The notes under the pieces: model-generated
Databases searched by the model: none
The model's input: the letters and a program-made list of their open reading frames with translations, nothing else
What the model was told of the DNA's origin: nothing
Assembly (NCBI GenBank): GCA_046349975.1
Contig: JAXMBH010000002.1
Coordinates: 128,470 to 192,469, forward strand
DNA length: 64,000 bases
From: Pirellulales bacterium
GTDB lineage: Bacteria > Planctomycetota > Planctomycetia > Pirellulales > Lacipirellulaceae
Reading direction: 5' to 3'
Part shown: positions 38,716 through 62,534 of the stretch, in pieces
Layout: each line of letters begins with the position of its first letter
How positions within the stretch are numbered: position 1 is the first letter of the stretch
Made by a program: the position numbers and the translations under genes

Positions 38716-39096
38716 TCGTCGCTCCAGAGGCGCGTGTAACTGTGGTTGAAGATGTAGTTCCGCAGTTTTTTAGCAAGCGCCGCGCCAAAAAGGCGAGATG
38801 GTCAGCCAAGATTCAGTCCGGTGTATTTAGTGGCGTGTATTCGATCAGCGTGGCTCATTAATGACCAGTCGTGCTGTGGGCCCGCCGACTGAAAGCACGC
38901 ATGTGACGTGGTTTCCGGCAAATCAAGCTGATTTCAAACTGGCCCAATAAGTGCATATGTGGCCAGTCAGGCCTAGCTGGCGGCGGTGCACATTCCGTCT
39001 ATTTCCAGCATTTCTGTACACGGCGGTGCAGTTCATCGCTTCCCCGACGCATGCGTTCAGCGCTGATACCACGGTTTTGACAAGGAGAATGTCGCC

Positions 39097-42000: not shown

Positions 42001-44814
42001 CTCAAGGACAATATCAATGAGATGATTCGTAACCTCAAGGATACGACACTCAAGAACAGCGAGCAGGACTGGCTCAAGACGAACCTCGCGAAGTTCAGCC
42101 GGATGCTCCAAGGCCAGAAGGACTTGCTCACGGTCGGTCGGCTCATTCTGTCGGAACTCGCGCCGGTGGTGAACGCCCAGCAAGCCATGTTCTACCTGCT
42201 CGATACCGGCCAGGAAGCGGCGCAGCTGGTGCTGCTCGCGAGTTATGCGTATCAGCCGCCGCGCACGGTGGGAACGACGATCGCCCTCGGCGAAGGATTG
42301 GTTGGTCAGTGCGCCGTGGAACGCGAGCAGATTCTGCTCACGAACGTGCCGCCGGAATACACGCAAGTGAGTTCTGGATTGGGCGGTGCTCCGCCGCGAA
42401 GCATCATCGTGTTGCCGGTATTGTTCGAAGGACAGGTGAAGGCCGTGCTGGAGCTGGCGTCGTTTGAAACGTTCAGCCCGGCTCACCAGGCCTTGCTCGA
42501 ACAGCTGACGGAAAGTATCGGCATCGTGCTCAACACGATCGCCGCGAACATGCGGACGGAAGACCTGCTCAAGCAGTCGCAGTCGCTGGCCATGGAATTG
42601 CAGAATCGTCAGCAGGAACTGCAACAAACGAACCAGGAACTCAAGGAAAAAGCTCGCTTGCTCGCCCACCAGAACGTCGAAGTGGAGCGCAAGAACCGCG
42701 AAGTCGAGCAAGCGCGGCAGGCGCTCGAAGAGAAGGCAAAGCAACTCGCACTTACCTCGAAGTACAAGTCGGAGTTCCTGGCGAACATGTCGCACGAACT
42801 GCGGACGCCGCTCAACAGCTTGTTGATCCTTTCCGACCAGCTATCGAAGAACCCCGACGGCAACCTTACGCCGCGGCAGACCGAGTACGCCCAGACGATT
42901 CACTCATCCGGCAACGACCTGCTCACGCTCATCAACGATATTCTCGACCTGTCGAAGATCGAATCGGGTACGGTGGTGCTCGATGTCGGCGAGGTGCGGT
43001 TTACGGAGCTCCACGACTTGCTCGAACGCACGTTCCGGCACGTCGCCGAGGCCAAGGGAGTGGACTTCCTGGTGCATCTCGCGCCAGATTTGCCGCTCAA
43101 CATGCAGACCGATAGCAAGCGCGTGCAGCAGGTACTCAAGAATTTGCTCTCGAACGCATTCAAATTCACACATCGCGGCACGGTATCGCTGGACGTGCGG
43201 ATGTCGCATGCCGGTTGGAGTAGCGACAACGATATGCTCAAAAATGCAGATGCTGTGGTGGCCTTCAGCGTCACCGATACCGGCATTGGCATTCCGCCGG
43301 ATAAGCAGCAGAGCATTTTCGAAGCGTTCCAACAGGCCGACGGCAGCACGAGCCGGAAGTACGGCGGCACGGGCCTGGGCCTCGCGATCAGCCGCGAACT
43401 CGCGCGGCTGTTGGGCGGTGAGATCCGCCTGATCAGCATGCCGGGCGCAGGCAGCACATTCACGCTCTATTTGCCGATGTCGTACACATCGTATACCACG
43501 CCCCGGCCCGCGCGGCGGCAGACGATTGCGCCCGTGGCGGCGGCCGAACCCGAGCCGGCGCCATTGCCCGAGTTCGCGAAAGTTGAAGAGCCGGTCACGT
43601 TCAACGAGTTCGACGATGACCGCGATTCGATTCAAGCGAATGATCGGGTGGTGCTGATCGTGGAAAACGATCCGACATTCGCGAAACTCCTGTTGGAAGC
43701 GGCTCGTGAAGGCGGATTCAAGGGGATTGCGACGTCGCGCGGGGCGGCGGCGTTGTCGCTCGCGCACGAGTATCGAATCTCGGCAGTGACGCTCGACATA
43801 TGCCTGCCAGATATCAACGGCTGGCGGGTGCTGCGGCGACTCAAGCAGGATCTCGACACGCGGCACATTCCGGTGTACGTCGTGTCGACCGAAGACGAAC
43901 GCGAAAGTGCCCAGAGCATGGGCGCCGTCGACACGGTGCAGAAGCCGTTGCAAACAAAGGAGACCATGGATGAGCTGTTCGCAGCGATTCGTCGGTTCAT
44001 CGAACGGCCGGTGAAAGAATTGCTGGTTGTGGAGACCGACGGCGAGCGTCGTGAGAAGTTGCTCAATGTGATTGGCAACGGCGATGTGCGGCCGACCGCG
44101 GTGGCCAGCGGCGCTGAAGCCTTAAAAATCCTGGACGAAAAGCAATTTGATTGTGTTGTGTTCGATGTGAATGCGCCGGAGTCGAGTGTCGACGCCGTGA
44201 TCGATCGACTGCACGCCAACCCGCAGCATAGCGACACGCCGCTGGTGATGTACTCCGAAGAACCGCTGCTCCTCGACGAGGCAATGACCGATCGGCTGGC
44301 CCGCTCGACAACGGTGCGGCACGTGCAGTCGCCCGACCGGTTGCTCGACGAAGTGAACTTACTGCTGCATCGACCGACGTCGACGCTCAGCGAGCCGCAG
44401 CGGCAGATTTTGCAGAAGTTGCACGAGGACGACGCGATCCTCAACGGCAAGAAAGTGCTGATTGTCGATGACGATATTCGCAATATCTTCGCCCTCACGA
44501 GCATCCTGGAACGGTATAATATTCATATCTTGTCGGCGGAAACGGGCCGCGATGCCATTCAAATTCTGCAAGACACGCACGACGTGGATGTGGTCTTGAT
44601 GGACATCATGATGCCCGAGTTTGATGGGCTGGATACGACCCGAGCGATTCGCGAGATTCCGCGGTTCAAGGATTTGCCGATCATTGCGGTGACGGCGAAG
44701 GCCATGAAGGGCGACCGCGAGAAGTGCATTGAAGCGGGCGCTTGGGACTATTTATCGAAACCGGTGAACCCGGAGCAGTTGTTGGCAGCGTTGCGTGCTT
44801 GGATACGGCGCTAA
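39097..44814 (+). CDS. soluble hybrid sensor histidine kinase with poly-HAMP array (about 20 HAMP domains), GAF, HisKA/HATPase_c and three receiver domains
   Basis: 1905 aa with AAGGAG 8 nt upstream of the ATG and no TM segment. Nine 92-aa units (...[92 protein letters not shown]...) each contain a canonical and a divergent HAMP. These are followed by a GAF domain ([14 protein letters not shown]...[20 protein letters not shown]) and a coiled coil. The kinase core has an H-box ([17 protein letters not shown]) and a G-box ([23 protein letters not shown]). The three REC domains end with a canonical one (VLIVDDD...[13 protein letters not shown]...K). Confidence 0.9.
39560..42050 (+). repeat. nine tandem 276-bp coding repeats (8 about 88-99% identical, 1 diverged) encoding the poly-HAMP units
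   Basis: The periodicity is visible in the nucleotide sequence. For example, 40150-40290 and 40426-40566 are nearly identical, and the AAGTGACGCGTGTGGCCCG-CGAAGTGGGTAC blocks recur every 276 nt. It also creates many spurious antisense ORFs. Confidence 0.85.
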
Positions 44815-44824
44815 TCTCGCGTGA

Positions 44825-46969
44825 GTGACGATGGGAGATCGGGCGGGCATCCTGCCGCTGCTGCTGAGAGACGATGTGATGAAGTCCAATTGCGAGCCAG
44901 TGAACATCCTGGTGGTTGACGACGTGCCAGAAAAGATTCTGGCCATCGAGGCTGCGCTGGGTGAATTGGGGCAGACACTCGTGAAGGCGAACTCGGGCCG
45001 CGAAGCGCTGCGATGCCTGCTGAAAGATGATTTCGCCGTGATCCTGCTCGATGTCAACATGCCGGAGATGGACGGCTTCGAAACGGCCGCGCTCATTCGT
45101 GAGCGGCGGCGCAGCGAACATACGCCGATCATCTTCATCACGGCCTTCAATGATGATGTGCAGATGGCGAAGGGGTACTCGCTCGGGGCGGTTGATTTCA
45201 TCTCGACGCCAATCGACCCAGACGTGCTGCGCACCAAGGTGAGTGTGTTCGTCGACCTGTTTCAGAAGACGGAGACGATCCGACAACAGGCGGCCCACCG
45301 CGTGCAACTCGCGCGGGAGCAAGCGGCTCGGCAGGTCGCTGAGAAGGCGATGCGGCGTTCCGCACTGCTCGCGGAGGCAAGCCGACTGTTGTCGCGGTCG
45401 CTGGATTTCGACACGACGCTTACCAGTTTGTACCGCACGATTGTGCCGGCGCTCGCCGATGGTTGCCAGCTCGTGCTCTACGACACGAATATGGATATCT
45501 GGTACTCGCACATCAAAACAGGCGAGGAGGAGCACGACGGCGGCAACGCCAGCTCGCACGCGCGCGTGGAGCAAGTCGACCCGACGCTGGCCTCGGTCGT
45601 GAAAAGCGCGGTCGAAAGCGGGCACGCGCAGCCGATTTCGCCGGAGTTCGTGAAGAACGCGCCGAATTTGGGGTCCCGGAAGAATTGGTCGTACGCGGTC
45701 GTGGCGCCGCTCATTGCTCGAGATATGCCGCTGGGGGCCATTGTATGCTGTCTGCAGGGCACCAACCGACAGTTCGAGCCGGCTGACCTCGCACTGATCG
45801 AAAATCTCGCGAGCCGCGCGGGGACGGCGCTCGACAATGCGCAGCTTTTCCAAACGATTCGCGAAGGCGAGCGCCGCAAGGACGAATTCCTGGCGATGCT
45901 CGGTCACGAGCTACGCAATCCACTCGCCGCGATCACCAACGCCGGTGAGCTCACGCGGCTGCTTGATGCCCAGGATCCGTCGTTCCAGGAATCACTCGAG
46001 ATCATTCGGCAGCAAGCGTCGCTCATGAAGCGGCTGGTCGACGACTTGCTCGATGTGTCGCGCATCACGAGCGGTCGCGTGCAGTTGCAGAAATCGCTCG
46101 TGGATGTGTCGGAGATCGTGACGCGCGTGGCGGAGTCGAACGATGTATTGTTCTCTTCGCGCGGTCACACATTGCACCTCAGCACGCCCGAGGAGGATTT
46201 GTTCTTGGAGGCCGATCCGTATCGGCTCGAGCAAATTCTATCGAACTTGCTGGTGAATTCGGCGAAATACACCGACCCCGGCGGCGATATTTGGTTCAGC
46301 GCGGCCCGGGAAGGCGACGATGTGGTCTTCCGTGTGCGCGATACTGGCATAGGCATTGGGCCCGATTTGCTGCCGAATGTGTTTGATCTGTTTGCACAGG
46401 CGAACCGATCGCTGCATCGGGCCGAGGGCGGTTTAGGCATTGGTTTGACGATCGTTCGCGGTCTCACCGAGCTCCACGGCGGCCGCGTGTGGGCGACCAG
46501 CGAAGGCTTTGGCCGAGGCGCTGAATTCGTGATTTCACTGCCTGCCGTCGTGGAAGCAAATAAGCCTGCTGAACCGGAAGAACCGCCGCTGGCCGAAGAG
46601 ACGATTCGGCGGCGGCGTGTGCTGGTAGTCGAAGATCAACCGGCGCTGTCGCATGTGACGGTGGCTTTGCTTAAAAAGTTGGGCCACGAGGTGCGGTCGG
46701 CGGCCGATGGTCCCGAGGCCCTGATGGCTGTGCGGGAGTACAACCCGGAAGTGGTGTTGCTCGATATCGGGTTGCCGGGCATGGATGGATATGAAGTGGC
46801 GCGTTGCGTCCGCAGCGAGCTTGGCGAGGATGCGCCGCTGCTGGTGGCGATGACCGGTTATAGCCAGCACGAGGTGAGCCGGCACGCGCGGCGTGCGGAG
46901 TTCGACCATCACCTGGTGAAGCCGGCTGATATGAGTGCGCTTAAAGAATTGCTCACGCACTCGCGTTGA
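44825..46969 (+). CDS. hybrid histidine kinase: N-terminal receiver, GAF-like linker, HisKA/HATPase_c and C-terminal receiver
   Basis: It has two receiver domains (REC1 NILVVDDVPE...ILLDVNMPEMDG and REC2 VLVVEDQPAL...VLLDIGLPGMDG), an H-box (FLAMLGHELRNPLAAI) and a G-box (GGLGIGLTIVRGLTELHGGRVWA). A possible alternative start is at 44879 (MKSNCEP). Confidence 0.85.
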   Translation: MTMGDRAGILPLLLRDDVMKSNCEPVNILVVDDVPEKILAIEAALGELGQTLVKANSGREALRCLLKDDFAVILLDVNMPEMDGFETAALIRERRRSEHTPIIFITAFNDDVQMAKGYSLGAVDFISTPIDPDVLRTKVSVFVDLFQKTETIRQQAAHRVQLAREQAARQVAEKAMRRSALLAEASRLLSRSLDFDTTLTSLYRTIVPALADGCQLVLYDTNMDIWYSHIKTGEEEHDGGNASSHARVEQVDPTLASVVKSAVESGHAQPISPEFVKNAPNLGSRKNWSYAVVAPLIARDMPLGAIVCCLQGTNRQFEPADLALIENLASRAGTALDNAQLFQTIREGERRKDEFLAMLGHELRNPLAAITNAGELTRLLDAQDPSFQESLEIIRQQASLMKRLVDDLLDVSRITSGRVQLQKSLVDVSEIVTRVAESNDVLFSSRGHTLHLSTPEEDLFLEADPYRLEQILSNLLVNSAKYTDPGGDIWFSAAREGDDVVFRVRDTGIGIGPDLLPNVFDLFAQANRSLHRAEGGLGIGLTIVRGLTELHGGRVWATSEGFGRGAEFVISLPAVVEANKPAEPEEPPLAEETIRRRRVLVVEDQPALSHVTVALLKKLGHEVRSAADGPEALMAVREYNPEVVLLDIGLPGMDGYEVARCVRSELGEDAPLLVAMTGYSQHEVSRHARRAEFDHHLVKPADMSALKELLTHSR

Positions 46970-47203: not shown

Positions 47204-48676
47204 ATGTCACGCATTTTGGTAATCGATGACGATCGTTCAGTGCGGCATTTGATCGGTAAGGCATTCGAGGAATCGGATGTCGAAGTAGTGCCGGCAGCCA
47301 CTTCAGATGAAGGCCTGCAGCTGCTCGGCAGCCGGCAGTTCGACGTAGTGCTCCTCGACATTTTATTGCCAGAGTCTTCCGGTCTGGATGTGTTCGAACG
47401 CATTCGGCAGATTGACCCGAAGCTGCCAGTGATCTTCATCACGTCGCTCTCGAGCAGCGATACGGCGATCAAGGCCATGACGCTGGGCGCATTCGATTAC
47501 TTGCTTAAACCGCTCGATTTAGCGCGGATTCGCGACCTGGTGCGGCAAGCGATCGAGATTCGCCGCTTAATGAGCATTCCGGTCGAGATGCCCGGCGCTC
47601 GGAACGGGCGCATGAACGGTGCGGTGACCGAGAATCGTACCGACACGCTCGTGGGCAATAGCCCGCAGATGCAGGAAGTGTACAAGGCGATCGGCCGCGT
47701 GGCGCCGCAAGATGTGACCGTGCTCATTCGTGGCGAGAGCGGCACGGGCAAAGAGCTTGTCGCCCGGGCGCTCTATCAGCATAGCCCGCGTGTGAAGGGC
47801 CAGTTCCTAGCGGTGAACTGCGCGGCGATCCCGGATGCGTTGCTGGAAAGCGAGCTGTTCGGCCACGAGAAAGGGGCCTTCACCGGCGCCGATCAGCGGC
47901 GAATCGGCAAGTTCGAACAATGCTCGGGCGGCACGCTGTTCCTCGATGAAATTGGCGATATGTCGCCGCTCGTGCAGAGCAAGGTGCTGCGGGTGTTGCA
48001 ATCGCAACAGTTTGAACGTGTCGGCGGCAACCAGACGATCAGCACCGATGTGCGCGTCATCGCGGCGACGAACCGCGACCTCGAGAAAATGGTTGAGGAA
48101 GGCGATTTCCGTTCCGACCTCTACTACCGGCTCAGCGGGTTCACGATCCAGCTCGCCCCGTTGCGTGATCGGCCCGAGGACCTGCCGCCGTTGCTCGAAA
48201 ATTATCTGGCACTCTTCAGCAAGGAACTGAGCAAAGATGTGCACGGTTTCTCGCCCGAGGCGATGGACGTGCTGCTCAATTACTCTTGGCCCGGCAACGT
48301 ACGCGAACTGCAAAACGTGCTTAAGCAGACGTTGCTGCGATCCGCCGGGCATGTGGTGATTCCAGATTTCATTCCCGATCGTGTTCGCACGCCGGGCAGC
48401 AGCTCGGCGAGCGATGGCGGCGACTTGCCAGGGACCGACCTTCGGCAGTTCGTCGATGAACGCCTGGAACACGAATCGACGGATTTGTATGCCGAGGCAC
48501 TTGAGTTCATGGAGCGCTACGTGGTGACTCGCGTGCTCCGCGTGTGCGAGGGCAACCAGTCGAAGGCCGCCCGGATGCTCGGCATCACCCGCGGTTGTTT
48601 ACGGAGCAAGGTGCGGGCGCTCAAAGTCTCAATCGACACGCGCGTGCAGGTGGAAGGCGAGCCGGTCGAAGTCTAA
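47204..48676 (+). CDS. sigma-54-dependent response regulator (NtrC family: REC + AAA+ + Fis HTH)
   Basis: The receiver domain reads ILVIDDD...VLLDILLPESSG. The AAA+ domain has a GESGTGKE Walker A motif, a GAFTGA sigma-54 contact motif and an ESELFGHEKGAFTGA-like segment. The C-terminal HTH reads ARMLGITRGCLRSKVRAL. GGAGG lies 8 nt upstream of the chosen ATG. Confidence 0.9.
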   Translation: MSRILVIDDDRSVRHLIGKAFEESDVEVVPAATSDEGLQLLGSRQFDVVLLDILLPESSGLDVFERIRQIDPKLPVIFITSLSSSDTAIKAMTLGAFDYLLKPLDLARIRDLVRQAIEIRRLMSIPVEMPGARNGRMNGAVTENRTDTLVGNSPQMQEVYKAIGRVAPQDVTVLIRGESGTGKELVARALYQHSPRVKGQFLAVNCAAIPDALLESELFGHEKGAFTGADQRRIGKFEQCSGGTLFLDEIGDMSPLVQSKVLRVLQSQQFERVGGNQTISTDVRVIAATNRDLEKMVEEGDFRSDLYYRLSGFTIQLAPLRDRPEDLPPLLENYLALFSKELSKDVHGFSPEAMDVLLNYSWPGNVRELQNVLKQTLLRSAGHVVIPDFIPDRVRTPGSSSASDGGDLPGTDLRQFVDERLEHESTDLYAEALEFMERYVVTRVLRVCEGNQSKAARMLGITRGCLRSKVRALKVSIDTRVQVEGEPVEV

Positions 48677-48925
48677 GGACGGAGGCCGCACACGGCCAAC
48701 TTGCGGCTTTGTCTTAGAGCGTGTTTTGAAGTTGAAGCAGTTGCCTTGCAGCCCTCAGCGTTCGGGAGCGGGCAGGTGCCGGGGTTGCTGGCACCATCAG
48801 GCTTTGGCCTAACCTCTCCCAAAGCGAGAAGGAGGATTGCCAAACACGCGCCCAGGGTGGCTGGCTGGTACGGAAAAGAAGTTACCGTCGGAAAAAGTGT
48901 GACGGGTTGAAGAGACCAACCGGCG

Positions 48926-49297
48926 TCAAGCCGTCACACTATTGCCCACATTGCTGCGAATCGCTGCAAGTAGCTGCTGCAATTCCTGCTCGAGCTCGAT
49001 AAACTGGGCATCCACATGTTCGAGTTTTGCGTGGTGGCCGGCGTCTTCAATTTGCTGAGCGGCCTGCCCTGCCCTTTCGCCGCCGCAGCCAAGCACGAGC
49101 CCTTTCAGGGCGTGCGCCTTCGCGCGAATGCTTGCCGCGTCCCTCCGTTCCACTGCCTGCTTCAGTTCCTCGGCGAGTGGTGGCGCATCATCCAACAGGA
49201 TGGCCGCCATCTCACGGAAAAGTTGTTCATCGCCACCAAAGCGGGTTAGAGTCGCCTCAATGTTGAGAATCCTTGCAGTCAACGCACCATCTCTCAT
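48926..49297 (-). CDS. Hpt (histidine phosphotransfer) domain protein
   Basis: 123 aa. It has the Hpt phosphoacceptor region AKAHALKGLVLGCGGERAGQAA in a four-helix-bundle-like context. Confidence 0.7.
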   Translation of the reverse strand: MRDGALTARILNIEATLTRFGGDEQLFREMAAILLDDAPPLAEELKQAVERRDAASIRAKAHALKGLVLGCGGERAGQAAQQIEDAGHHAKLEHVDAQFIELEQELQQLLAAIRSNVGNSVTA

Positions 49298-49651
49298 CGC
49301 TGTCCACTCGGCCGCAACTCACACCATTTACCCGCGGTAACGGAACCGCAACTAACGACGTTTCGGCTACACTGTAATCGAAACACCTGCGGAAGTGTAT
49401 TGCCGGCGGAGTTATATGGCGTCGCCGCGTGCGTGCCCGCATTCGGAGGTCCGCCAGTCCTGTAAATAATTTCGCAGTTTAGTGGGGATATCGGGCGGCA
49501 AACCTTCGCGGCGGCGGCGTTCCGTTGCGGACCAATTTCCGCGGACTTCAGCGGCTCGTTGCCGCACTTCATTCGTGCTGATTCTGCTGATTCTTAACAT
49601 TGGTCGGCTCCTGCTGAACTGCATGCTCGTGTGCGAAAGAATTGTTTGCGT

Positions 49652-49978
49652 CTATTTCGAAGCGTTCTGTTTTCGAGTACGGGCAGCCTTTCTTGCCGAG
49701 GCCCGTCGGGCGGCCTTTGGCCGGGCGGCCGCTGCTGCACCGCCTTTCTTGCCACCAGTACGCGATGGCACCTTGTTTTGTTCCTTGCCGCGACCGGAAC
49801 CCCCCGGTTTCTTGCCGCCATGGTCGCTGGCATTCACCGTCGCCCAGGCCCGCCGCTCCGCTTCTTTCTCCGACAAGCCGCGGCTTTCGTAGCCCTCTTC
49901 GATATGCTGCGCCTTGCGTTTTTGCTTGTCCGTATATTTCGATTTTTCGCCTCGCGGCATGACTCCCTCCCTGGCCAT
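49652..49978 (-). CDS. small Lys/Arg/Gly-rich disordered protein with conserved N-terminal PRGEKSKYTDKQKRKAQHIEEGYE...RAWATVN motif (stress-protein-like)
   Basis: 108 aa with a very basic, low-complexity C-terminus. The N-terminal about 50 aa appear to be a conserved small-protein motif seen in other bacteria. It is preceded by a consensus sigma-54 promoter. Confidence 0.5.
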   Translation of the reverse strand: MAREGVMPRGEKSKYTDKQKRKAQHIEEGYESRGLSEKEAERRAWATVNASDHGGKKPGGSGRGKEQNKVPSRTGGKKGGAAAAARPKAARRASARKAARTRKQNASK

Positions 49979-50073
49979 TTTCGGCCGGCCGATGGATGGT
50001 TATTGCAGCGCCGCCCGGAGCGTCTAAATTGACCGCCGCCAGACAACACTTTATGCAAGTTGGCAGGTGGATT

Positions 50074-50089
50074 AGCAAGAACCGTGCCA
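50074..50089 (-). promoter_or_regulatory. sigma-54 (-24/-12) promoter TGGCACggttcTTGCT directing transcription of the 49978 gene
   Basis: The reverse complement of 50074-50089 is TGGCAC-N5-TTGCT, a perfect match to TGGCAC-N5-TTGCW with GG-N10-GC spacing. It lies about 95 nt upstream of the ATG at 49978. Confidence 0.55.
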
Positions 50090-50281
50090 CCCCAAACTTT
50101 TTGTCGGATAGGTTACGCTGCAGGCGCAAATGTGCTTGCTTTCCCACCAGGTTAGAGCATGGCTCGGATGATGCGGCATTGTTCAATTGACGCCGAACGA
50201 CCAAGTCGGCGCACCGGTAACCGCCCTCGGCCTCAAGGCCGAATGCCGCTGCGTTTCTATAGTGGACGACGAATTGACTAG

Positions 50282-50298
50282 TGGCATACGACGTGCTT
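50282..50298 (+). promoter_or_regulatory. weaker sigma-54-like promoter TGGCATacgacgtGCTT upstream of the YflT-like gene
   Basis: GG-N10-GC spacing is satisfied. The -24 element matches in 5 of 6 positions, while the -12 element is degenerate (GTGCTT). It lies about 50 nt upstream of the ATG at 50349. Confidence 0.3.
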
Positions 50299-50348
50299 GC
50301 TCTCTTTGACGCATCTTGAGTTAAGGTTACGAGAATTTTGGCCCCATA

Positions 50349-50915
50349 ATGAAGGCGGCAACAATGGCAAGCAATACAACCACGGTGAAACTAAACGAAC
50401 ACGCAAGCGAGGAGCGGCCGATTGAAGTCGGCGTGTTTGATGCGATCGATGCCGCCCGCCAGGCCGTGCACGGCCTGCGAGCGGCCGGATTTGGCATCGG
50501 GCAAATCACGGTCGTGTGCTCCGACGAAACAAAGGAACGTTATTTTAGCGAGTTCGAACATCAAGATCCCGCGGGCACTCACACGCCGACGGCTTCGATC
50601 GCGGGTGGAACGATAGGGGCAGTCGTTGGCGGTTTGGCCGTTGTGGCATCCGCCGTGGCTACCGGTAGTTTGGCGCTGTGGGCGGCCGGACCGATTTCAG
50701 CGTGGGCTGGCGGCGTGGCTGGCGGCCTCGTGGGCGCAATGATGACACGCGGCGTCGAGAAAGAGTTGGCAAACTACTATCAACAAGCCGTGATGAACGG
50801 TCAGATTTTGGTGGCGGCCGAGGATCACAGCGAGGCGAGCGCCAGCCGTCTGGCAGAGGCCGCGCGCATTCTTTCCCAGGCGGGCGCAAAGCCCCTGCCG
50901 TTGCGAGAAGGCTAG
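50349..50915 (+). CDS. YflT/general-stress-protein-17M-like domain protein with Gly-zipper membrane segment
   Basis: The N-terminal IEVGVFDAIDAARQAVHGLRAAGFGIGQITVV matches the YflT-type domain. It is followed by a Gly/Ala-rich hydrophobic segment (GGTIGAVVGGLAVVASAVATGSLALWAAG). 188 aa, with a possible alternative start at 50364. Confidence 0.55.
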   Translation: MKAATMASNTTTVKLNEHASEERPIEVGVFDAIDAARQAVHGLRAAGFGIGQITVVCSDETKERYFSEFEHQDPAGTHTPTASIAGGTIGAVVGGLAVVASAVATGSLALWAAGPISAWAGGVAGGLVGAMMTRGVEKELANYYQQAVMNGQILVAAEDHSEASASRLAEAARILSQAGAKPLPLREG

Positions 50916-51186
50916 GCGGCAGTGCGGCATTCTTGATGGGTGCGCAACCACATTGGTCCGAAGTACGTCATAAGTGCGGCTGCCACCAGTGCTTGCATCG
51001 CAAAGTTTTAGCTTCGCTTTCGCACAACGATTACGCGCAAGCCGTACAACGCGTGTTCGTGCGACGTAGTCGACCACTCCGGCACATGAAATGCTTTAGC
51101 CAACGTAACCGAAAATAACGACTTTGTTTTCCTGGATTGTTTTTCTTTGCCATCCTCGCATAGGCGCTGGAGGCACGTTGCACACT

Positions 51187-51489
51187 ATGAAGATTAACCA
51201 CCGCTTCACCGCTCTGACCTTGCTCGGCACCAGTTTGTTCATTGAACTCGCTGGGTGCTCATCGAAGCCCGTCGGGCAGTCGACAACCACTCGCGGCGTA
51301 GCAGAACACGATACGGCGGCTCCGGTCACGCCGCCGCCGGTGACAACACCCGCGCCTGCACCGTCGACCGACGCGACGAGCGATCGGCCGGGTGACCGCA
51401 AAGTGGATGTGCAGGTCGGCGGACCGGCCGGAGTCAACGTCCAAGTCGGACCAAAGACTGGCGCCAACAACGGTACAACGGCGCAATAA
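51187..51489 (+). CDS. small lipoprotein (Pro/Thr-rich)
   Basis: Begins MKINHRFTALTLLGTSLFIELAGCSS, a signal peptide with a LAGC lipobox. The mature part is low-complexity and Pro/Thr/Val-rich. The tracked ORF begins at a TTG at 51124. Confidence 0.5.
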   Translation: MKINHRFTALTLLGTSLFIELAGCSSKPVGQSTTTRGVAEHDTAAPVTPPPVTTPAPAPSTDATSDRPGDRKVDVQVGGPAGVNVQVGPKTGANNGTTAQ

Positions 51490-51631
51490 CTAACGTCGAC
51501 TGCAAATTGTGTTGTGACCTCGAGCGAATGAAGGCACTTCGCGGTGCGATTCGGGTTAGCTCCTGAGAAGTGGAGTCGCTTCGCTCAACTGGATGTTTTT
51601 CGTTTCCGCGTTTTTGAAAAGGAGAAGTTGT

Positions 51632-52348
51632 ATGATATTGAATCAACGTAGCGTTGCGTTAGCGGCGACGGTCGTGGCCGCCCTGCTCGTCTTCGCGACC
51701 AGCGATGCCCAAGCGCGTCACCGCCGTGGCGGCAGCTGCGGGTCCTGCGGTGGCGAGTCTTCCGGCTCCTGGGGTTCCTCAGGATCCTGGGGCGGTTCCT
51801 CATGTGGCTCGTTCGGCGGTCGGTGGCGCCGTCACCATGGTAGCTCCGGGAGCTGTGGCAGTTCCGGCGGCAGCAGCTGTGGCTGCGAAAGCGAGGCCAG
51901 CTGCAGCTCATGCCAATCCAGCTGCAACACTTGTGAGTCGAACTGCAACACATGTGAGTCGAGTTGCAATACCTGCGGCACTAGCGAAAGCAGCTGCAGC
52001 ACTTGCTCTGGTAGTTCAGACGCCGACGACGATGACCACAAAGAGTCTCACGAAGCCAATTATCATCAAGATCAGAGTGTCGATAGCCATCGCACGATGA
52101 CCGGAAGCGCCGAGATGCACGACAACGGTGCGAACTCGCAGAACCGTAATCGCGAAAATGACGACATGCGCGCTCCAGACCGCGACGATCGTGCCGCCAG
52201 TCATTCCAGCAGCTCAACCGACACAAAGTCGGATAACAGTAGCGACAAGTCGTCGAAAGCAGAGGGCCAAAGCAACGATAGCGACAATAAGGAGAGCAAA
52301 TCCGACTCATCGAGCGAGAATAAATCAGAAACAGGCGCTCCGAAGTAA
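51632..52348 (+). CDS. secreted Cys/Ser/Gly-rich low-complexity protein with CxxC and CNTCES repeats and acidic Ser/Asp-rich tail
   Basis: AAAGGAG lies 8 nt upstream of the ATG at 51632. A signal peptide (MILNQRSVALAATVVAALLVFATSDAQA) is followed by RHRRGGSCGSCGG...CGSFGG...CGSSGGSSCGCESEASCSSCQSSCNTCESNCNTCESSCNTCGTSESSCSTC. The remainder is Asp/Ser/Asn/Lys-rich. Confidence 0.55.
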   Translation: MILNQRSVALAATVVAALLVFATSDAQARHRRGGSCGSCGGESSGSWGSSGSWGGSSCGSFGGRWRRHHGSSGSCGSSGGSSCGCESEASCSSCQSSCNTCESNCNTCESSCNTCGTSESSCSTCSGSSDADDDDHKESHEANYHQDQSVDSHRTMTGSAEMHDNGANSQNRNRENDDMRAPDRDDRAASHSSSSTDTKSDNSSDKSSKAEGQSNDSDNKESKSDSSSENKSETGAPK

Positions 52349-52537
52349 ATCGGACGCGTGTTCGCCAAGTTACGCGAAAGAGGCTGGTCAGGCGCTGGTC
52401 GCCAGGCCAGCCTCTTGGCGTTGCTTCGGCACGTCGCGGGGCGCCGAGCGATCGCGCATTTAGAAATACGCGCGCAGAAAAACGGCCACGGCGGCTGAGC
52501 AGCCGCGCGTGGCCTCGATCGATGCTCGGGTGTGCGG

Positions 52538-53050
52538 CTAACGACTACTCACGGATGCCGGATTGACCGAACTCTCGGCGATTTGTGTCAGCTGTTTGTC
52601 GGTCGATTTTTCTTCGTCGAGTGTCTGTTCGAGCAACTCGGCCGCGTAAGAATCGGCAATGCGCTGCGCGAATGTGCGAGCCGTACCATAGGCTGCAATT
52701 TCATAATGTTCGACACGCTGCGCCGCCGCAATCAGGGCAGCGTCCAAAACGTCTTTGTCGCCTTCAGCGCTCAACACGTTGCTGCCTTCTTTGATGAGCC
52801 CACTCATTGCGGCGCACGTCTCTCGTTCGGCATCGAGCCCGCGGTGTTCGAAGATCGACTCTAGCCGCTGGGCATGCTTTTCAGTTTGCGTAAGGTGGCT
52901 TTGAAATGCGCGTTTGAGCGCCGGGTTGGTCGCTTTGTCAGCCATTTTCGGAAGCGCGTCAATTAACTGCTGCTCGGCGTCGTACAGGTCCTTCAGCTCG
53001 TGAACGAACAGTTCTTCCAAGGAGTTGAACTCCTCACTCATAAAAAGTCC
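52538..53050 (-). CDS. ferritin-like YciE/YciF (DUF892) stress protein
   Basis: The N-terminus reads LEELFVHELKDLYDAEQQLIDALPKMADKATNPALKRAFQSHLTQTEKHAQRLE, and the protein has a four-helix ferritin-like pattern. The start was chosen at MGLFM, which has GGAGG 6 nt upstream. Confidence 0.8.
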   Translation of the reverse strand, partial: GLFMSEEFNSLEELFVHELKDLYDAEQQLIDALPKMADKATNPALKRAFQSHLTQTEKHAQRLESIFEHRGLDAERETCAAMSGLIKEGSNVLSAEGDKDVLDAALIAAAQRVEHYEIAAYGTARTFAQRIADSYAAELLEQTLDEEKSTDKQLTQIAESSVNPASVSSR

Positions 53051-53263
53051 CATCGCTGACCTCCAATACCTTATTGCTATTGCGTGGCTGCGTACATTCA
53101 CAGGTCGCAGTACTACCCGGCCTAAACCCGGACGCATAGGTCATGCCAATTGCCCTCGCGCTTGCCACGGCGAAAAATCGTTGAAGACCGATACCGATCG
53201 AGGCGGGAGCAGCGTGCGACGTTGGGTGGCCAGTACTTGGTCGGGCCGTCGCGAGTTTAGAGA

Positions 53264-53363
53264 TACACGGGGCGGTGGCATCGGCTGCAGAGCGTTGCGG
53301 CCTCTGCGGAGAAAGCTCTCTCTTGCCGGATTGCAGATCTTGGCGGGAACACCGCCCCGTGTA
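53264..53363. repeat. 100-nt element bounded by a perfect 14-bp inverted repeat (TACACGGGGCGGTG ... CACCGCCCCGTGTA) inside a 900-nt gene-free region
   Basis: Read directly from the sequence. The interior also contains sub-palindromes (CTGCAGAG/CTCTGCGG and GATTGCAGATC). It may be a structured ncRNA or a MITE-like element. Confidence 0.4.
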
Positions 53364-53949
53364 TGGGCCTTGCTTGAAAATCGGCGAGGTCGCACTTAGC
53401 GACCGACGTGATTTGGTCTCGCGGTTTGAGAACCCGCGATGGTATAGGCGGATTTAGCAAGTGATGTGCCGCATAGCGGCCACCGTCCGAAATTAGTCGA
53501 AAGTGCTACGCTTTCACGTCAAAAGGGCCGTATCGCGCTCCGCATTCGATGCCGACTGGATGGTCCGACAGTGACAGCGTTGAGTTAAATTCGGCCAATC
53601 TGAGCGGGGATCAATCATTTGGATCAATGCAGCACGGTGATGCGTGCCTATCGAGCCGCCACCCAACGAGCGATGTTGTTCAAAACAACACCAGACCTTG
53701 GTTTCAAATCGGCCTTGGAAACGGTCGCATCCGGACCGAGATCGCAAAATATACCTCCTGCTGCCGAGAGTCGCCGGCAGGGAGGCTAGGACAGGTTCGC
53801 CTTTCGACTGCCTTGTGGCAACGCCGCGCGTGACCGCACGATCAAATCTGACCCCACTCTGCCCGTACAACATGACGGGTATGCGGTTTGCGTTACAGGC
53901 ACTTTGTTGTGAGATGAACTCAGTCTAAATCGAAAATTCCCGCGAGGAA

Positions 53950-54630
53950 TTGAGCTTTGAGAGGATACCTACTGCCATGTTTTCTGATGCCATGATACTC
54001 GTCGTTGGGGCTGATCCGCAGGACCGCGAAATCATTCTTCAAGCACTCGGCGAGACATGTCACGTGGTGGCGGCTCAAAATACGGAAGACGCGCTAGCGC
54101 ACATCTCGGATCGGGTTCAGCTCGTTATCTGTGAGAGCAACGGCGCGAGCTTTCGGGGCGAGGACCTGCTGCGGCGATGGAAGTCGACGCGGTCGGGCAC
54201 GCCGTTTCTCATGCTGATCGGTGAGCATGATGTCAACGGCGCGATCAACGCGATGAAGACTGGCGCCGATGATTGCATCGTGAAGCCGATTGCAGTTGGC
54301 GCGTTGCGTGACGCTGCAAAGGCGCTCCTGGCAAATGCTGTTGATCGGCCGGTGAACGGTTCGAACGACCCGTCGTCTGGACGCCGACGTTCAAATATCG
54401 ATATTCCGCCGGACACCTCGCTCGAGGATTTGGAGCGCGCGGCGGTCGAGCAGGCTCTCGTTCAACACCATGGCAATCGCACGCATGCGGCTCGCACCCT
54501 GGGAATTTCGGTGCGCACGCTGCAGCGGAAGTTGAAAGCATGGGGAATGCCGATCGTCTCGTTCCCTAGCTCGCCCTCAGCCGCAAATTTTCTACGATCA
54601 ACTCCATCGTTTCGGGCGCACGTTCATTAA
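53950..54630 (+). CDS. atypical response-regulator-like protein (receiver with Glu at phosphoacceptor position) + Fis-type HTH
   Basis: The REC-like N-terminus has acidic residues in the beta1 loop (LVVGADPQD) and a conserved Lys (CIVKP), but the position expected for the phosphoacceptor Asp reads LVICESNG, with Glu. The C-terminal HTH reads HGNRTHAARTLGISVRTLQRKLK. A possible alternative start is at 53977. Confidence 0.6.
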   Translation: MSFERIPTAMFSDAMILVVGADPQDREIILQALGETCHVVAAQNTEDALAHISDRVQLVICESNGASFRGEDLLRRWKSTRSGTPFLMLIGEHDVNGAINAMKTGADDCIVKPIAVGALRDAAKALLANAVDRPVNGSNDPSSGRRRSNIDIPPDTSLEDLERAAVEQALVQHHGNRTHAARTLGISVRTLQRKLKAWGMPIVSFPSSPSAANFLRSTPSFRAHVH

Positions 54631-54751
54631 GACCCTGTAGCGCGTCCCTTATTCCTTGGCGGCGGCGGAGCGATGCCTTTAGTTCGTTCTGCAGCCGCCT
54701 TTTTTATCGGTTTGTGAGCGGCCGAACGACACCCGTATGGGACGTCGCAAC

Positions 54752-54785
54752 AAAAAAAGCCCGACTTGCGCCGGGCTTCTTTATT
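54752..54785. terminator. bidirectional Rho-independent terminator (AGCCCG-acttgcgc-CGGGCT hairpin flanked by A7 upstream and a T-rich tail downstream)
   Basis: The plus-strand sequence is AAAAAAAGCCCGACTTGCGCCGGGCTTCTTTATT. It serves the plus-strand regulator gene ending at 54630 and the minus-strand DUF1328 gene ending at about 54802. On the minus strand the hairpin is followed by TTTTTTTG. Confidence 0.6.
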
Positions 54786-54801
54786 AGACGTATTTTCGGT
54801 G

Positions 54802-54972
54802 TTATGCGACCGGCGGCCGCAATCGCGGCACCACCAGGCTAATCAAGAACAGCACGAGAAACACGAAGAACAATACTTGTGCGATGTAGGTTGCTGTACT
54901 AGCAGCTGCACCGAAGCCAAATGCGGCCGCGATCAACGCGATCACTAAAAACGTGAGTGCCCAGCTGAGCAT
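54802..54972 (-). CDS. DUF1328/UPF0391 small membrane protein (56 aa)
   Basis: Below the 60-aa cutoff, so not in the ORF track. Reverse-strand translation gives [56 protein letters not shown], the classic UPF0391 pattern. Coordinates are approximate to 1-2 nt. Confidence 0.6.
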
Positions 54973-55056
54973 GTTGCACCCCTTCCCTTTCTGTAGTATT
55001 GGGTGGAATTTACGCTGCAGACGCAGCGATCAGGTGAAAAACGGTATTGATTGAGT

Positions 55057-55074
55057 AAGCAAGCTGCGTGCCGA
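55057..55074 (-). promoter_or_regulatory. sigma-54-like promoter CGGCACgcagcTTGCT upstream of the DUF1328 gene
   Basis: The reverse complement has GG-N10-GC spacing, a -24 element matching in 5 of 6 positions and a -12 TTGCT. It lies about 85 nt upstream of the ATG at about 54972. Confidence 0.4.
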
Positions 55075-55328
55075 AACGGCGCGTTCGGCGTGCGGTTGAT
55101 CGGCGCACAAAACTCCGCAAGTACAGATGCTTTAGCAGGCCGCAGCTAAGAATGACTAGTCTGCGGTGGCGAAAACGGTCAAGAAACAACCAGCACGGTG
55201 TCATTGCGACACGCATGCTCGCTCGATGTGTCGGTACATCGATTGCTGGCCGATTGATAAAGGATTCGTACTGAGGCACGGCGGCCCGGAACGATTTTCG
55301 ACATTCAGTCGGCAATGCGAGGTGATCT

Positions 55329-55580
55329 ATGCGGCTAGTCCTGATTGTGCTTGTTTTGATCGTCGTGGGGTCGCTGGTCGGCTGGATTTCGTTCCGTCGC
55401 GATGCCGACCATGCGAGCATCAATCTGGAAACCAACGCGATTCGTCAGGATACGAGCAAGGTTATGCAATCTGGCGCGGAATTGCTGCATCGCGCCGGCG
55501 ACAAGATGGAAGACGAGTCCGTGAACCAACAAAAACAGGCGCCAGTCACGCGGCGTGAACCGGCGCCTGTAACGCGCTAA
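55329..55580 (+). CDS. small membrane-anchored hypothetical protein
   Basis: 83 aa. An N-terminal hydrophobic helix (MRLVLIVLVLIVVGSLVGWI) is followed by a GAGGTG ribosome-binding site 6 nt upstream. Confidence 0.4.
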   Translation: MRLVLIVLVLIVVGSLVGWISFRRDADHASINLETNAIRQDTSKVMQSGAELLHRAGDKMEDESVNQQKQAPVTRREPAPVTR

Positions 55581-55593
55581 GAATTCGGCAAGT

Positions 55594-55797
55594 CTAGCGA
55601 GGCAGTGCGGTTTCGAACGAGCGCACCTGCCGCTCTGCTTCATCTCGGGCGAGCCCGTACTTCTTCTCCACGGCGCCGAGGAGTTGATCTCGCTGTCCTT
55701 CGATGCGGTCGAGATCATCGTCCGTCAATTCGCCCCACTTTTCACGGATCTTACCGCGAATTTGTTTCCAGTTGGCTTTAATGATGTCGCCATTCAT
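55594..55797 (-). CDS. CsbD-family general stress protein
   Basis: The sequence MNGDIIKANWKQIRGKIREKWGELTDDDLDRIEGQRDQLLGAVEKKYGLARDEAERQV matches the CsbD pattern (KGKxKExxGxLTDDDLD...GKxDQLxGKIQERYG). The start was chosen at M5 of the tracked ORF, which has GGAGG 5 nt upstream. Confidence 0.7.
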   Translation of the reverse strand: MNGDIIKANWKQIRGKIREKWGELTDDDLDRIEGQRDQLLGAVEKKYGLARDEAERQVRSFETALPR

Positions 55798-55837
55798 AAG
55801 TGCCTCCATGTGTTTGTTGGACCGAGAACCTTCAGAT

Positions 55838-56038
55838 TTAAAGGTCCTTCAACGGGCGATCGATATCGACTCCCCATGCTACGTGTCGGGGATGCCAATC
55901 GCTCTCGCTCACCCACTGGTCAAACCGCCGCAATGCTTCGAGCCGGTCGCCGAGAGCTTCGAAGAGATCGCGATCAAGTCGGCGATCCCGGTCGAGGGCG
56001 TTGAGATATTCAATTTCATTGCGCGTTGCTAACGTCAT
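55838..56038 (-). CDS. hypothetical small protein (66 aa)
   Basis: The start was chosen at MTLATRNEIEYLNALDRDRRLDRDLFEALGDRLEALRRFDQ..., which has GAGAGGAGG 6 nt upstream. It lies directly downstream of a consensus sigma-54 promoter and upstream of the csbD-like gene on the same strand. Confidence 0.45.
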   Translation of the reverse strand: MTLATRNEIEYLNALDRDRRLDRDLFEALGDRLEALRRFDQWVSESDWHPRHVAWGVDIDRPLKDL

Positions 56039-56098
56039 ACATGGCCTCCTCTCGAAAAGGACGTTTTGCTGCGAGTGGCGTGATGCCGTAAGGCCGGG

Positions 56099-56115
56099 TC
56101 GCAATCGATGTGCCA
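56099..56115 (-). promoter_or_regulatory. sigma-54 promoter TGGCACatcgaTTGCGA upstream of the 56038/csbD-like minus-strand gene pair
   Basis: The reverse complement of 56099-56115 is TGGCAC-N5-TTGCG, with consensus -24 and -12 elements and correct spacing. It lies about 60 nt upstream of the ATG at 56038. Confidence 0.5.
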
Positions 56116-56306
56116 TCGAGCCATGCCAGCGCTGCGAGGAAGCATTACGGCCGAGCGCCGGCTGACCGCGCATTGACTTCACGATAAAACGCGCAAAGAA
56201 AAGGGCGTTGCCGAGCGGTCGCCGGGCTTTGCAGGCCGGCCGATCCGCTGTGGCAACGCCAGGGAGTCTGTGCCAAGTGTTTCTCGAGCGATGCGGACAA
56301 CCGCGA

Positions 56307-61317: not shown

Positions 61318-62469
61318 TTAGCGCGCTTCGTAAATCGAATCAAAGACGCCGCCGTCTTTAAAATGCTTATCGGTGGCTTCTCGCCAAGAGCCAAACACAT
61401 CTTTCACACTGAACAGCGTGAGCTGCGAAAACTGTTTGAGAACCTCAGCATCAACCAACTCCGGCATGCTGGGCCGATAGTAGTGTTTGGCCGCGAGCTT
61501 CTGACCGGCCGGGGTGTAAAGATACTCGACGTACGCTTTCGCGACTTCAATCGTGCCGTTCGTTTGGGCGTTGGCGTCGACGAGCGCTACCGGCGGTTCG
61601 GCCAGAATGCTGATCGACGGCACAACGAGCTCGACCTGTTCGGGTCCCAGCTCCTTGATCGCGAGCAACGCTTCATTTTCCCAGGCGAGCAGCACATCGC
61701 CAATGCCGCGCTGCACGAACGTAGTCGTCGAGCCGCGAGCACCGGAATCGAGCACCGGCACTTTCTTGTAGAGCGCGGCGATGTATGCCTTCGCCTTGGC
61801 TTCGTCGTTGTTATTCGCTCTGAGGGCATAGCCCCACGCAGCGAGGTAGGCTAGGCGGCCGGCGCCGGAAGTTTTCGGGTTCGACGTGATGACGTCGACG
61901 CCATCGCTTAAGAGGTCGTTCCAGTCCTTGATCGCTTTCGGATTGCCTTTGCGAACCAGGAACACGACGGTTGAACGATACGGGCTGCTGTTGTTTGGCA
62001 GCCGTTCTTGCCAGTTGGCAGGCAGTTTCTTGGTGAGGTCGGCGATTTGATCGATATCGTAAGCAATGGCAAGGCTGACGACGTCAGCCTTGAGGCCGTC
62101 AATCACCGATCGGGCTTGCGCGCCGGAGCCGCCGTGCGAGACCTTTACCGTCACCTGTTGGCCGTGCTCTTCCAACCAATGTTGGGCGAATGCTTTGTTG
62201 AAGTCGGCATAGAATTCGCGCGTGGGGTCGTACGAGACGTTGAGCAACTCGACGGCCGGCTTCGCAGCGGAAGCGTCGCTACGATTGGCAGCGGCGGTCG
62301 CTGAATCGGTTGACGTGGAAACACCGGCGATCCGCGAATCACAGCCACCCAGTGCGCACAAGCCGGCGGCTAGGGCGAGCGTCACATAGGAACGTGCGGC
62401 CGAACGGCGAAGGGGTGATGCCGTCAGGCCCGAAGCTGGACCTTCCTCGGCGGTATCCGCATTGACCAT
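61318..62469 (-). CDS. sbp: sulfate/thiosulfate-binding periplasmic protein
   Basis: Sbp/CysP-like throughout (LLNVSYDPTREFY...SHGGSGAQARSVIDGL...SNPKTSGAGR). The start was chosen at MVNADTAE, before a lipoprotein-like signal ending in LGGC. The tracked ORF extends to 62568. Confidence 0.8.
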   Translation of the reverse strand: MVNADTAEEGPASGLTASPLRRSAARSYVTLALAAGLCALGGCDSRIAGVSTSTDSATAAANRSDASAAKPAVELLNVSYDPTREFYADFNKAFAQHWLEEHGQQVTVKVSHGGSGAQARSVIDGLKADVVSLAIAYDIDQIADLTKKLPANWQERLPNNSSPYRSTVVFLVRKGNPKAIKDWNDLLSDGVDVITSNPKTSGAGRLAYLAAWGYALRANNNDEAKAKAYIAALYKKVPVLDSGARGSTTTFVQRGIGDVLLAWENEALLAIKELGPEQVELVVPSISILAEPPVALVDANAQTNGTIEVAKAYVEYLYTPAGQKLAAKHYYRPSMPELVDAEVLKQFSQLTLFSVKDVFGSWREATDKHFKDGGVFDSIYEAR

Positions 62470-62534
62470 CGCAATAACTCCCGAAACTTGCGCCCAAGAT
62501 TGGTGGCCCGAAGTGCAGCGGTGCTGCGATGCAC

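Follow-up and report, generated by a model that had tools for sequence, protein, structure and literature searches.

We analysed a 64-kb stretch of a Pirellulales genome (contig JAXMBH010000002.1; the whole stretch of 64,000 nucleotides (nt) is called the window below, and positions are counted from its first letter), and conclude that a -24/-12 element in the window, here termed P1, is very probably a functional sigma-54 promoter of the gene for a small basic protein and is paired with a divergent sigma-54 promoter, termed P2. A sigma-54 promoter had been proposed for this gene in an earlier reading of the sequence alone (the sequence-only reading), and the proposal is supported by the presence of the element at the same position and in the same orientation upstream of orthologues of the gene. 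Moreover, P1 and P2 appear to belong to a set of about eight similar promoters in 50-56.2 kb, which precede general-stress genes and several small uncharacterised genes. The features of the control region and the two flanking genes, given in amino acids (aa), are as follows.

50074-50089, minus strand: P1, sigma-54 -24/-12 element TGGCACGGTTCTTGCT; GG at 50088-50087, GC at 50076-50075
50282-50297, plus strand: P2, divergent sigma-54-like element TGGCATACGACGTGCT, 82 nt upstream of the YflT-like start
50090-50281, no strand: presumed enhancer region, 192 bp between the two -24 elements (candidates only)
49652-49960, minus strand: basic-protein gene, 102 aa (MPRGEKSKY...), from a very large uncurated family
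50364-50915, plus strand: YflT-like gene, 183 aa (Pfam YflT at 3.8e-4, below the cut-off; public gene calls and synteny)

The -24/-12 elements of the divergent control region

The minus strand from 50089 to 50074 reads TGGCACGGTTCTTGCT and matches TGGCACG-N4-TTGCW at 12/12 positions, with TGGCAC at 50089-50084, the spacer GGTTC at 50083-50079 and TTGCT at 50078-50074; the letters and coordinates reported earlier were correct when re-read from the sequence. In the 64-kb window, the exact pattern TGGCAC-N5-TTGC has two matches (0.20 expected), and TGGCACG-N4-TTGCW has one (0.04 expected), as was also the case in 4/100 shuffles. Taken alone, the consensus match of P1 is suggestive only. When 12 orthologue sites were used to build a weight matrix, it overfitted the spacer positions and ranked P1 only ninth, and simple consensus scoring was therefore used.

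P1 is intergenic and faces the basic-protein gene at a distance of 129 nt from the ATG at 49960; transcription is predicted to start near 50063, which would give a leader of ~100 nt. No sigma-70-like promoter was detectable in a scan of 48600-51300. The 108-aa open reading frame (ORF) previously assigned to the gene (49652-49978) exists; however, its start moves to the second ATG, at 49960, and its product shortens to 102 aa. The second ATG is almost certainly the true start on sequence grounds, because the Shine-Dalgarno sequence GGAGGGAG at 49970-49963 ahead of it, the N termini of the homologues, all of which start with MPRG(D/E)KSKY, and the public gene calls of 102 aa agree. Three other samples of the same species (L081, L082 and L083) encode an identical protein, and over a 440-nt control region their sole difference from the window is a 2-nt (CT) indel at 50041-50042, i.e. 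in the presumed leader. The 2-nt difference between strains marks the leader as non-coding; the leader matches no known RNA family and has no unusual structure.

That P1 is more than a chance match is argued by the conservation of the -24/-12 element at orthologous loci. We fetched 80 genome loci encoding the basic-protein family, 13 from Planctomycetota and 67 from other taxa, and scanned the upstream regions for sites in which GG and GC were obligatory (GG-N10-GC) and at least 9/12 consensus positions matched. On the gene strand, a sigma-54 site was present upstream in 8/13 planctomycete loci, at -61 to -133, compared with ~0.5 expected (background in planctomycete loci, 0.042 per 100 nt per strand; binomial P ~5e-9), and the site-bearing set spans Pirellulales, Planctomycetaceae and Isosphaeraceae. 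Close metagenomic relatives, i.e. contigs with the nearest non-identical homologues, had a site upstream of the orthologue in 4/5 cases (L164, TGGCACGCCACTTGCC; L165, TGGCGCGCCTTTTGCA; L167, GGGCACGCAAGTTGCA; L168, TGGCATACCGATTGCA), and in the one negative, L170, the basic gene is operon-internal. In total, 12/18 of the pooled genome loci and close relatives carry a site, compared with ~0.8 expected. When 13 sites were compared, GGC and TGC were invariant, including C4 and T13, which the filter had left free. The intergenic DNA of L164, L167 and L168 is too diverged to be aligned with that of the window (global alignment failed), and the -24/-12 element thus forms an island of conservation. 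In the metagenome locus set, which is taxonomically mixed, most loci have neither a sigma-54 motif nor the EcfG motif described below.

The weaker plus-strand site that had been noted to diverge from P1 exists at 50282-50297; it matches 9/12 consensus positions with the correct GG-N10-GC spacing, and from its GC at 50295-50296 transcription is predicted to start near 50308. The gene that P2 faces, which is divergent from the basic gene, encodes a YflT-like protein with a glycine-zipper-like C-terminal half. Counterparts of P2 facing the YflT-like gene were found in L164 (CGGCATACGACGTGCT), L167 (TGGCATGCGACGTGCG, at -79) and L168 (TGGCACGCTAACTGCG, at -68); in L170, where the YflT-like gene has another context, it has its own site, TGGCACCTCTTTTGCT, at -104. 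Altogether, a YflT-facing site is present in 5/7 cases, which supports the suggested bidirectional sigma-54 control region; moreover, such a region would be in keeping with the location of P1 and P2 on opposite strands, 195 bp apart. The intergenic region, previously put at 370 nt, is indeed non-coding, and extends over about 400 nt from 49960 to the YflT-like start at 50364 once the start of the basic gene is corrected. Candidate features of the presumed enhancer region are an inverted repeat, CGCCGA-N9-TCGGCG, at about 50190-50210, and the 10-mer ACGCCGAACG at 50189-50198, which has an exact copy at 55083-55092 (chance about 0.06).

Similar sites at neighbouring stress genes

Among the 44 sigma-54-like sites in the window with at least 9/12 consensus positions, 12 lie between genes, in the correct orientation and close to a gene start, and 9 of these 12 well-placed sites fall in 50-56.2 kb (Poisson about 1e-7). 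Seven transcription units have a site 77-129 nt before the start codon, compared with about 0.36 expected: the basic gene (129 nt), the YflT-like gene (82 nt), a lipoprotein-like gene (107 nt), the DUF892 gene (95 nt), the DUF1328 gene (101 nt), a membrane ORF (97 nt) and a 66-aa ORF followed by CsbD (77 nt). Apart from P1 and P2, the sites are as follows.

51080-51095, plus strand: CGGCACATGAAATGCT, 107 nt before the 100-aa lipoprotein-like gene (51187-51489)
53133-53148, minus strand: TGGCATGACCTATGCG, proximal site, 95 nt before the DUF892 gene (52538-53053)
53456-53471, minus strand: CGGCACATCACTTGCT, distal site, 418 nt before DUF892 and ~80 nt before an RNA-like element
55058-55073, minus strand: CGGCACGCAGCTTGCT, 11/12 positions, 101 nt before the DUF1328 gene (54802-54972)
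55232-55247, plus strand: CGGTACATCGATTGCT, 97 nt before the 83-aa membrane ORF (55329-55580), divergent from the DUF1328 site
56100-56115, minus strand: TGGCACATCGATTGCG, an exact TGGCAC-N5-TTGC match, 77 nt before the 66-aa ORF

The 66-aa ORF (55838-56038) has an AGGAGG Shine-Dalgarno sequence and is followed by the CsbD gene (55594-55797); in L033, a CsbD gene has a site at about -142. For DUF892, a test was set up beforehand on five diverged orthologue loci, L172-L176, and sigma-54-type sites were present upstream in 5/5. The proximal site was found at -84 to -133 in 4/5 (L172, L173, L174 and L176), and 4/5 (L172, with a 12/12 match, L173, L174 and L175) have a distal one between about -386 and -420; L176 has a site at -644. 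Four of the five loci share the two-site layout of the window (-95 and -418), and the test thus provides an independent confirmation of the promoter set. Both DUF1328 genes that could be tested in the DUF892 loci have a site (L173, CGGCACGCAGCTTGCG, at -70; L175, at -115), and DUF1328 in L170 has a weaker one at -99. The promoter set likely serves to co-ordinate a response to stress or to stationary phase.

An RNA-like element located between the two DUF892 sites is ~90% identical in six diverged genomes, while the flanking DNA cannot be aligned.

53253-53374, minus strand: RNA-like element, ~104-122 nt, between the two DUF892 sigma-54-like sites
Copies: L172, 1714-1836; L173, 1720-1842; L174, 1725-1844; L175, 1683-1806; L176, 1618-1736

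The predicted fold is multi-branched with a 15-bp closing stem and a U-rich 3' tail (z = -4.6 for the transcript region), has an invariant unpaired stretch, UUCCCGCCAA, and includes one compensatory pair across the copies. The element matches no Rfam family, and a search with a model of it detected no further copies in ~312 kb (the window and 58 fetched loci). It is a candidate for a sigma-54-dependent small RNA, a leader element or an attenuator; a transcript with a predicted start near 53444 that reached the U-rich tail near 53255 would measure roughly 180-200 nt.

Three further observations concern the same part of the window. The G+C content at third codon positions (GC3) is 0.59-0.68 for genes in 49000-56200 and 0.70-0.80 elsewhere in the window, and overall GC is slightly lower there (0.55-0.59), which may stem from a codon usage tied to expression or from a difference in origin; a GC3-based gene caller chose wrong frames in 49-56 kb, and the gene map was curated by hand with Pfam and public gene calls. 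Between DUF892 and DUF1328, 53950-54630 on the plus strand encodes a response regulator with a Fis-type HTH and no AAA+ domain (ActR/RegA-like), and an AAA+-less response regulator holds the same position in L172-L175; such a protein cannot activate sigma-54 itself and might modulate the same control regions. Finally, 51593-52348 on the plus strand encodes a secreted-looking, Ser/Gly/Cys-rich protein of 251 aa with CNTCES-like repeats and an acidic Ser-rich tail, for which neither a Pfam match nor an upstream sigma-54-like site was found.

The presumed operon, its candidate activator and alternative readings

Downstream of P1, the basic gene is followed by two genes on the same strand, and an activator gene and two kinase genes lie beyond them on the other strand.

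49412-49600, minus strand: conserved 62-aa ORF, presumed operon gene 2, called in relatives
48926-49297, minus strand: Hpt gene, presumed operon gene 3 (Pfam Hpt at 2.2e-9; synteny)
48892-48940, minus strand: terminator-like hairpin (48940-48896) and U5 run, presumed operon end, directly after Hpt
47204-48676, plus strand: NtrC-family response-regulator enhancer-binding protein, convergent with the operon, start confirmed
39097-46969, plus strand: two hybrid histidine kinases, candidate phosphodonors

The transcript from P1 probably covers the basic gene, the 62-aa ORF and Hpt and ends at 48940-48892, because the gene order is conserved, the 62-aa ORF is itself conserved and the sole terminator follows Hpt. 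The order basic gene, ~61-aa ORF and Hpt is kept in L001, L114, L164, L167, L168 and L169; the 62-aa ORF, which has no Pfam match, has 23 invariant residues across diverged relatives, and the Hpt protein carries the H-x-x-K-G motif (AHALKG). The hairpin after Hpt has a folding energy of -21.7 kcal/mol (z = -3.1), and no terminator-like site was found between the basic gene, the 62-aa ORF and Hpt. In the source species and its relatives the layout is fixed, with a divergent YflT-like gene and with the basic gene, the ORF and Hpt convergent with the activator and hybrid kinases; the same layout is present in L001, a separate metagenome-assembled genome (MAG) of Pirellulales.

The protein encoded at 47204 combines REC, AAA+ and a Fis-type HTH, as expected of the NtrC family (Pfam Response_reg 1.8e-28, Sigma54_activat 4.5e-74 and HTH_8 1.7e-9), and its translation contains GHEKGAFTGA, i.e. 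an intact GAFTGA loop. It scores below the NCBIfam equivalog cut-offs for NtrC (486 vs 559 bits), AtoC (461 vs 714) and ZraR (376 vs 760), and orthology to any of these was rejected; by these scores it is a generic member of the family rather than the orthologue of a regulator that has been characterised. Its adjacency to the operon is conserved in L001, L164, L167 and L168, at 79-96% identity. Of the two kinases, kinase 1 (39097-44814, plus strand; 1905 aa) contains a HAMP array of about ten domains in near-identical repeats of ~92 aa, followed by GAF, HisKA, HATPase and three REC domains, and kinase 2 (44825-46969, plus strand) contains REC, GAF, HisKA, HATPase and REC domains. In a contig from the same species, gene calls split the region of kinase 1 into two genes. 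Because both kinases have C-terminal receivers, they are expected to need an Hpt protein.

Sigma-54 requires an enhancer-binding protein (PMC7057263, PMC4987338). The planctomycete R. baltica has an rpoN gene (PMC2754498), and the two sigma-54 activators encoded in the window likewise speak indirectly for sigma-54 in the present genome. Dependence of P1 on an activator, stated as strict in the sequence-only reading, holds up as a computational prediction, in that it follows from the established sigma-54 mechanism and a GAFTGA activator is a conserved neighbour. In the mechanism that we propose, sigma-54 RNA polymerase would bind the GG at -24 and the GC at -12 as a closed complex, and transcription would start near 50063 only once an upstream-bound AAA+ enhancer-binding protein had remodelled this complex with ATP. 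The transcript would yield the basic protein, the 62-aa protein and Hpt and would stop at the hairpin and U-run, while the weaker P2, on the other strand 195 bp away, would drive the YflT-like gene. Signals may pass from a hybrid kinase via Hpt to the 47204 activator and from there to P1 and P2, and with Hpt under the control of P1 this would create positive feedback on the phosphorelay. Two activators had been named as candidates, the 47204 protein and a GAF-type activator with a GSFTGA loop that starts near 62716; synteny favours the former, and we consider the case for the 47204 protein as the cognate activator of P1 to be evenly balanced.

Several observations weigh against a sigma-54 promoter pair under a local activator. 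The site is absent from 5/13 planctomycete loci; of these, at least L011, L020 and L039 have another gene directly upstream of the basic gene, and for L023 and L069 there is no clear explanation. The YflT-like genes of L011 and L033 have no sigma-54 site. In the window, the 44 sites are mostly within genes, several of the other sites have a weak -12 (ATGC or GTGC) and only 9/12 positions, and the site-to-gene distances were studied post hoc, making the window-internal statistic somewhat optimistic. The sequence-only reading had suggested looking for inverted repeats of an upstream activator sequence in the intergenic region; searches for repeats, shared k-mers and seed-and-best-match motifs in four orthologous regions and five control regions of the window gave nothing above shuffled controls, and no IHF-consensus site was found. 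Finally, synteny is all that connects the putative activator at 47204 to the promoters. A chance match without function would be in line with the appearance of the 12-position motif in 4/100 window shuffles and with the many sites in genes, and is nevertheless an exceedingly remote reading of P1, given that the motif occupies orthologous positions in 12/18 diverged loci where ~0.8 are expected and that the divergent, DUF892 and DUF1328 sites are conserved too. It is also conceivable that the sigma-54 holoenzyme binds the motif while the main promoter is of an unrecognised sigma-70 or extracytoplasmic function (ECF) type, with sigma-54 giving a conditional boost or binding non-productively, as is known for sites in enterobacteria. 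The housekeeping and ECF consensus sequences of planctomycetes are poorly known, making the negative sigma-70 scan weak evidence, and in other phyla ECF-type promoters precede genes of this family; however, the element keeps its position, its orientation and its distance from the start codon in different families, as for a working promoter, and the same layout recurs at several neighbouring genes and their orthologues, and we therefore regard this possibility as quite improbable.

A more serious alternative accepts P1 as sigma-54 dependent and assigns it to another activator, at 62716 or elsewhere, so that the 47204 protein, the kinases and Hpt would be an unrelated module sharing the locus. 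No binding site ties the 47204 protein to the intergenic region, its gene is convergent rather than divergent, and in L046, L052, L054, L165 and other loci a sigma-54 site lies upstream of the basic gene and no such neighbour is present within 3 kb; moreover, the window encodes the second activator, and a master activator encoded far away could serve a set of about eight promoters just as well. Against this, the block of basic gene, 62-aa ORF and Hpt next to activator and kinase is kept in L001, L164, L167 and L168 despite unalignable intergenic DNA, and a functional link is the simpler explanation for an Hpt gene within a sigma-54 transcription unit adjacent to hybrid kinases that need Hpt. 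On balance, we consider a foreign activator rather unlikely, and favour the sigma-54 promoter pair at P1 and P2 with the 47204 protein as the leading candidate for its control.

The basic-protein family and known stress systems

The 102-aa protein has an isoelectric point (pI) of 11.1 and contains 15.7% K, 12.7% R, 16.7% A and 12.7% G. In an AlphaFold2 model with a mean predicted local distance difference test (pLDDT) score of 68.6, residues 11-48 form a helical hairpin (pLDDT about 83) and residues 71-101 a basic C-terminal helix, separated by a low-confidence Gly/Lys linker at ~49-69. Of its earlier description as basic and disordered, the first part is borne out, and the second holds only partially, for the linker. 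Speculatively, a protein with such a charge and the modelled hairpin might bind nucleic acid or the ribosome.

Homologues are numerous (at least 7978 significant matches, the best 75-89% identical), and in a Pirellulales MAG a protein of identical sequence is annotated as hypothetical. For the window protein and 18 homologues, no Pfam or NCBIfam match was obtained even at E up to 10, and for the window protein there was no PDB sequence match and no meaningful Foldseek fold match in PDB. Some sources label the family as ParE toxin or plasmid stabilisation protein; we rejected this label in the absence of a ParE/RelE domain, PDB or fold match, and it appears to be a propagated mis-annotation. 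A resemblance to ChaB was also not supported in a comparison for which the ChaB query was an approximate sequence.

In other phyla the basic gene has a different type of promoter. The EcfG consensus is GGAAC-N16-CGTT (PMC3892343). The strict motif GGAAC-N15-18-CGTT was found at about -57 in 18/67 non-planctomycete loci, mostly from Alphaproteobacteria, compared with ~0.2 loci expected (background 0.003 per 100 nt), and was absent from the planctomycete loci scanned. At the R. johnstonii 3841 locus (pRL11), where the basic gene lies near DUF3175, LigD and topoisomerase IB genes, GGAAC-N16-GGTT is present at -55. In many taxa the basic gene often adjoins DUF892 or CsbD genes. In the supplements on the R. 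etli EcfG regulon, the family was not found under the label "plasmid stabilization". Altogether, the family looks like a general-stress gene family whose promoter type differs by phylum.

Compared with the PhyR-NepR-EcfG system, the window thus has the same basic family, and in both cases the trigger would be a phosphorelay with multiple kinases; there, however, an ECF factor of the sigma-70 family is controlled by partner switching, whereas here sigma-54 would depend on an ATP-dependent enhancer-binding protein. A second parallel is with ZraR, which controls divergent sigma-54 promoters of zraP and zraSR in a stress response with autoregulation (PMC4987338). Both systems have two divergent sigma-54 promoters in one intergenic region, and the activator, a candidate in the case of the window, is an NtrC-family response regulator fed by a sensor kinase; one promoter expresses, or in the window would express, part of its own signalling pathway. 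By contrast, in the window the activator gene is convergent and lies outside the divergent pair, the signalling part under sigma-54 control would be Hpt rather than kinase and regulator, the kinases are hybrid, implying a multistep phosphorelay, and the products are a basic cytoplasmic protein and a YflT-like protein rather than a periplasmic chaperone.

The CsbD, YflT, DUF892 and DUF1328 families are sigma-B- or sigma-S-dependent in model organisms. The window shares these hallmark genes (CsbD, YflT-like, YciE/YciF-like DUF892 and YtjA-like DUF1328) with the sigma-B regulon of Bacillus and the sigma-S regulon of E. coli; however, here they lie behind -24/-12 elements and not behind promoters of the sigma-70 family. 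We regard it as possible, though somewhat short of probable, that a set of small general-stress proteins is run by sigma-54 and a phosphorelay-fed activator in Pirellulales and maybe in other Planctomycetota as well; this set would comprise CsbD, YflT-like, DUF892/YciE-like and DUF1328/YtjA-like proteins and the basic-protein family. If so, sigma-54 fills the role held elsewhere by sigma-B, sigma-S or EcfG, the same target genes have come under a sigma factor with an unrelated mechanism, and the 102-aa protein is a core general-stress protein across phyla that has no curated family.

Sigma-54 promoters with bidirectional control by an activator are textbook knowledge, and planctomycete regulons have been predicted before, so that the promoter taken by itself is no novelty. 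For Pirellula sp. strain 1, Studholme and Dixon predicted sigma-54 promoters in 2004, as cited in PMC2754498, and according to a survey from 2025, chaperones, proteases, UspA and MscS are predicted to be under sigma-54 control in Planctomycetia (PMC12316311). These in silico regulons, whose stress-linked genes also include thioredoxin, resemble ours in phylum and type of prediction and in the link to stress; CsbD and the COG numbers taken for CsbD, DUF1328 and DUF892 are absent from the main text and the supplements examined of PMC12316311, in which YflT and the basic family were not searched for by name. What the present analysis adds is a conserved promoter in front of a widespread, uncurated family that is often mislabelled ParE, and a sigma-54 "stress island" of multiple promoters whose basic-protein family has EcfG promoters in Alphaproteobacteria. 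It provides a testable hypothesis for the organisation of the general stress response in an under-studied phylum, and a possible example of a conserved regulon that moved between unrelated sigma factors; moreover, the Hpt gene inside the presumed sigma-54 operon suggests a feedback-wired phosphorelay.

Elsewhere in the window, a near-palindrome, TGGCAACGCAATTGCAATGCCA, at 62535-62556 contains overlapping sigma-54-like sites on both strands and sits between a sulfate-binding protein gene (61318-62568, minus strand) and the GAF-type activator near 62716. An 11/12 sigma-54-like site, TGGCGCGGCGCTTGCT, at 38772-38787 on the minus strand is intergenic upstream of the giant kinase gene and points away from it; on the crude gene map, no minus-strand gene is evident immediately downstream of it. 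Finally, a cyclic di-AMP riboswitch (Rfam RF00379, 39.5 bits vs a cut-off of 38) at 33336-33602 on the minus strand immediately precedes an 818-aa gene (30884-33340, minus strand).

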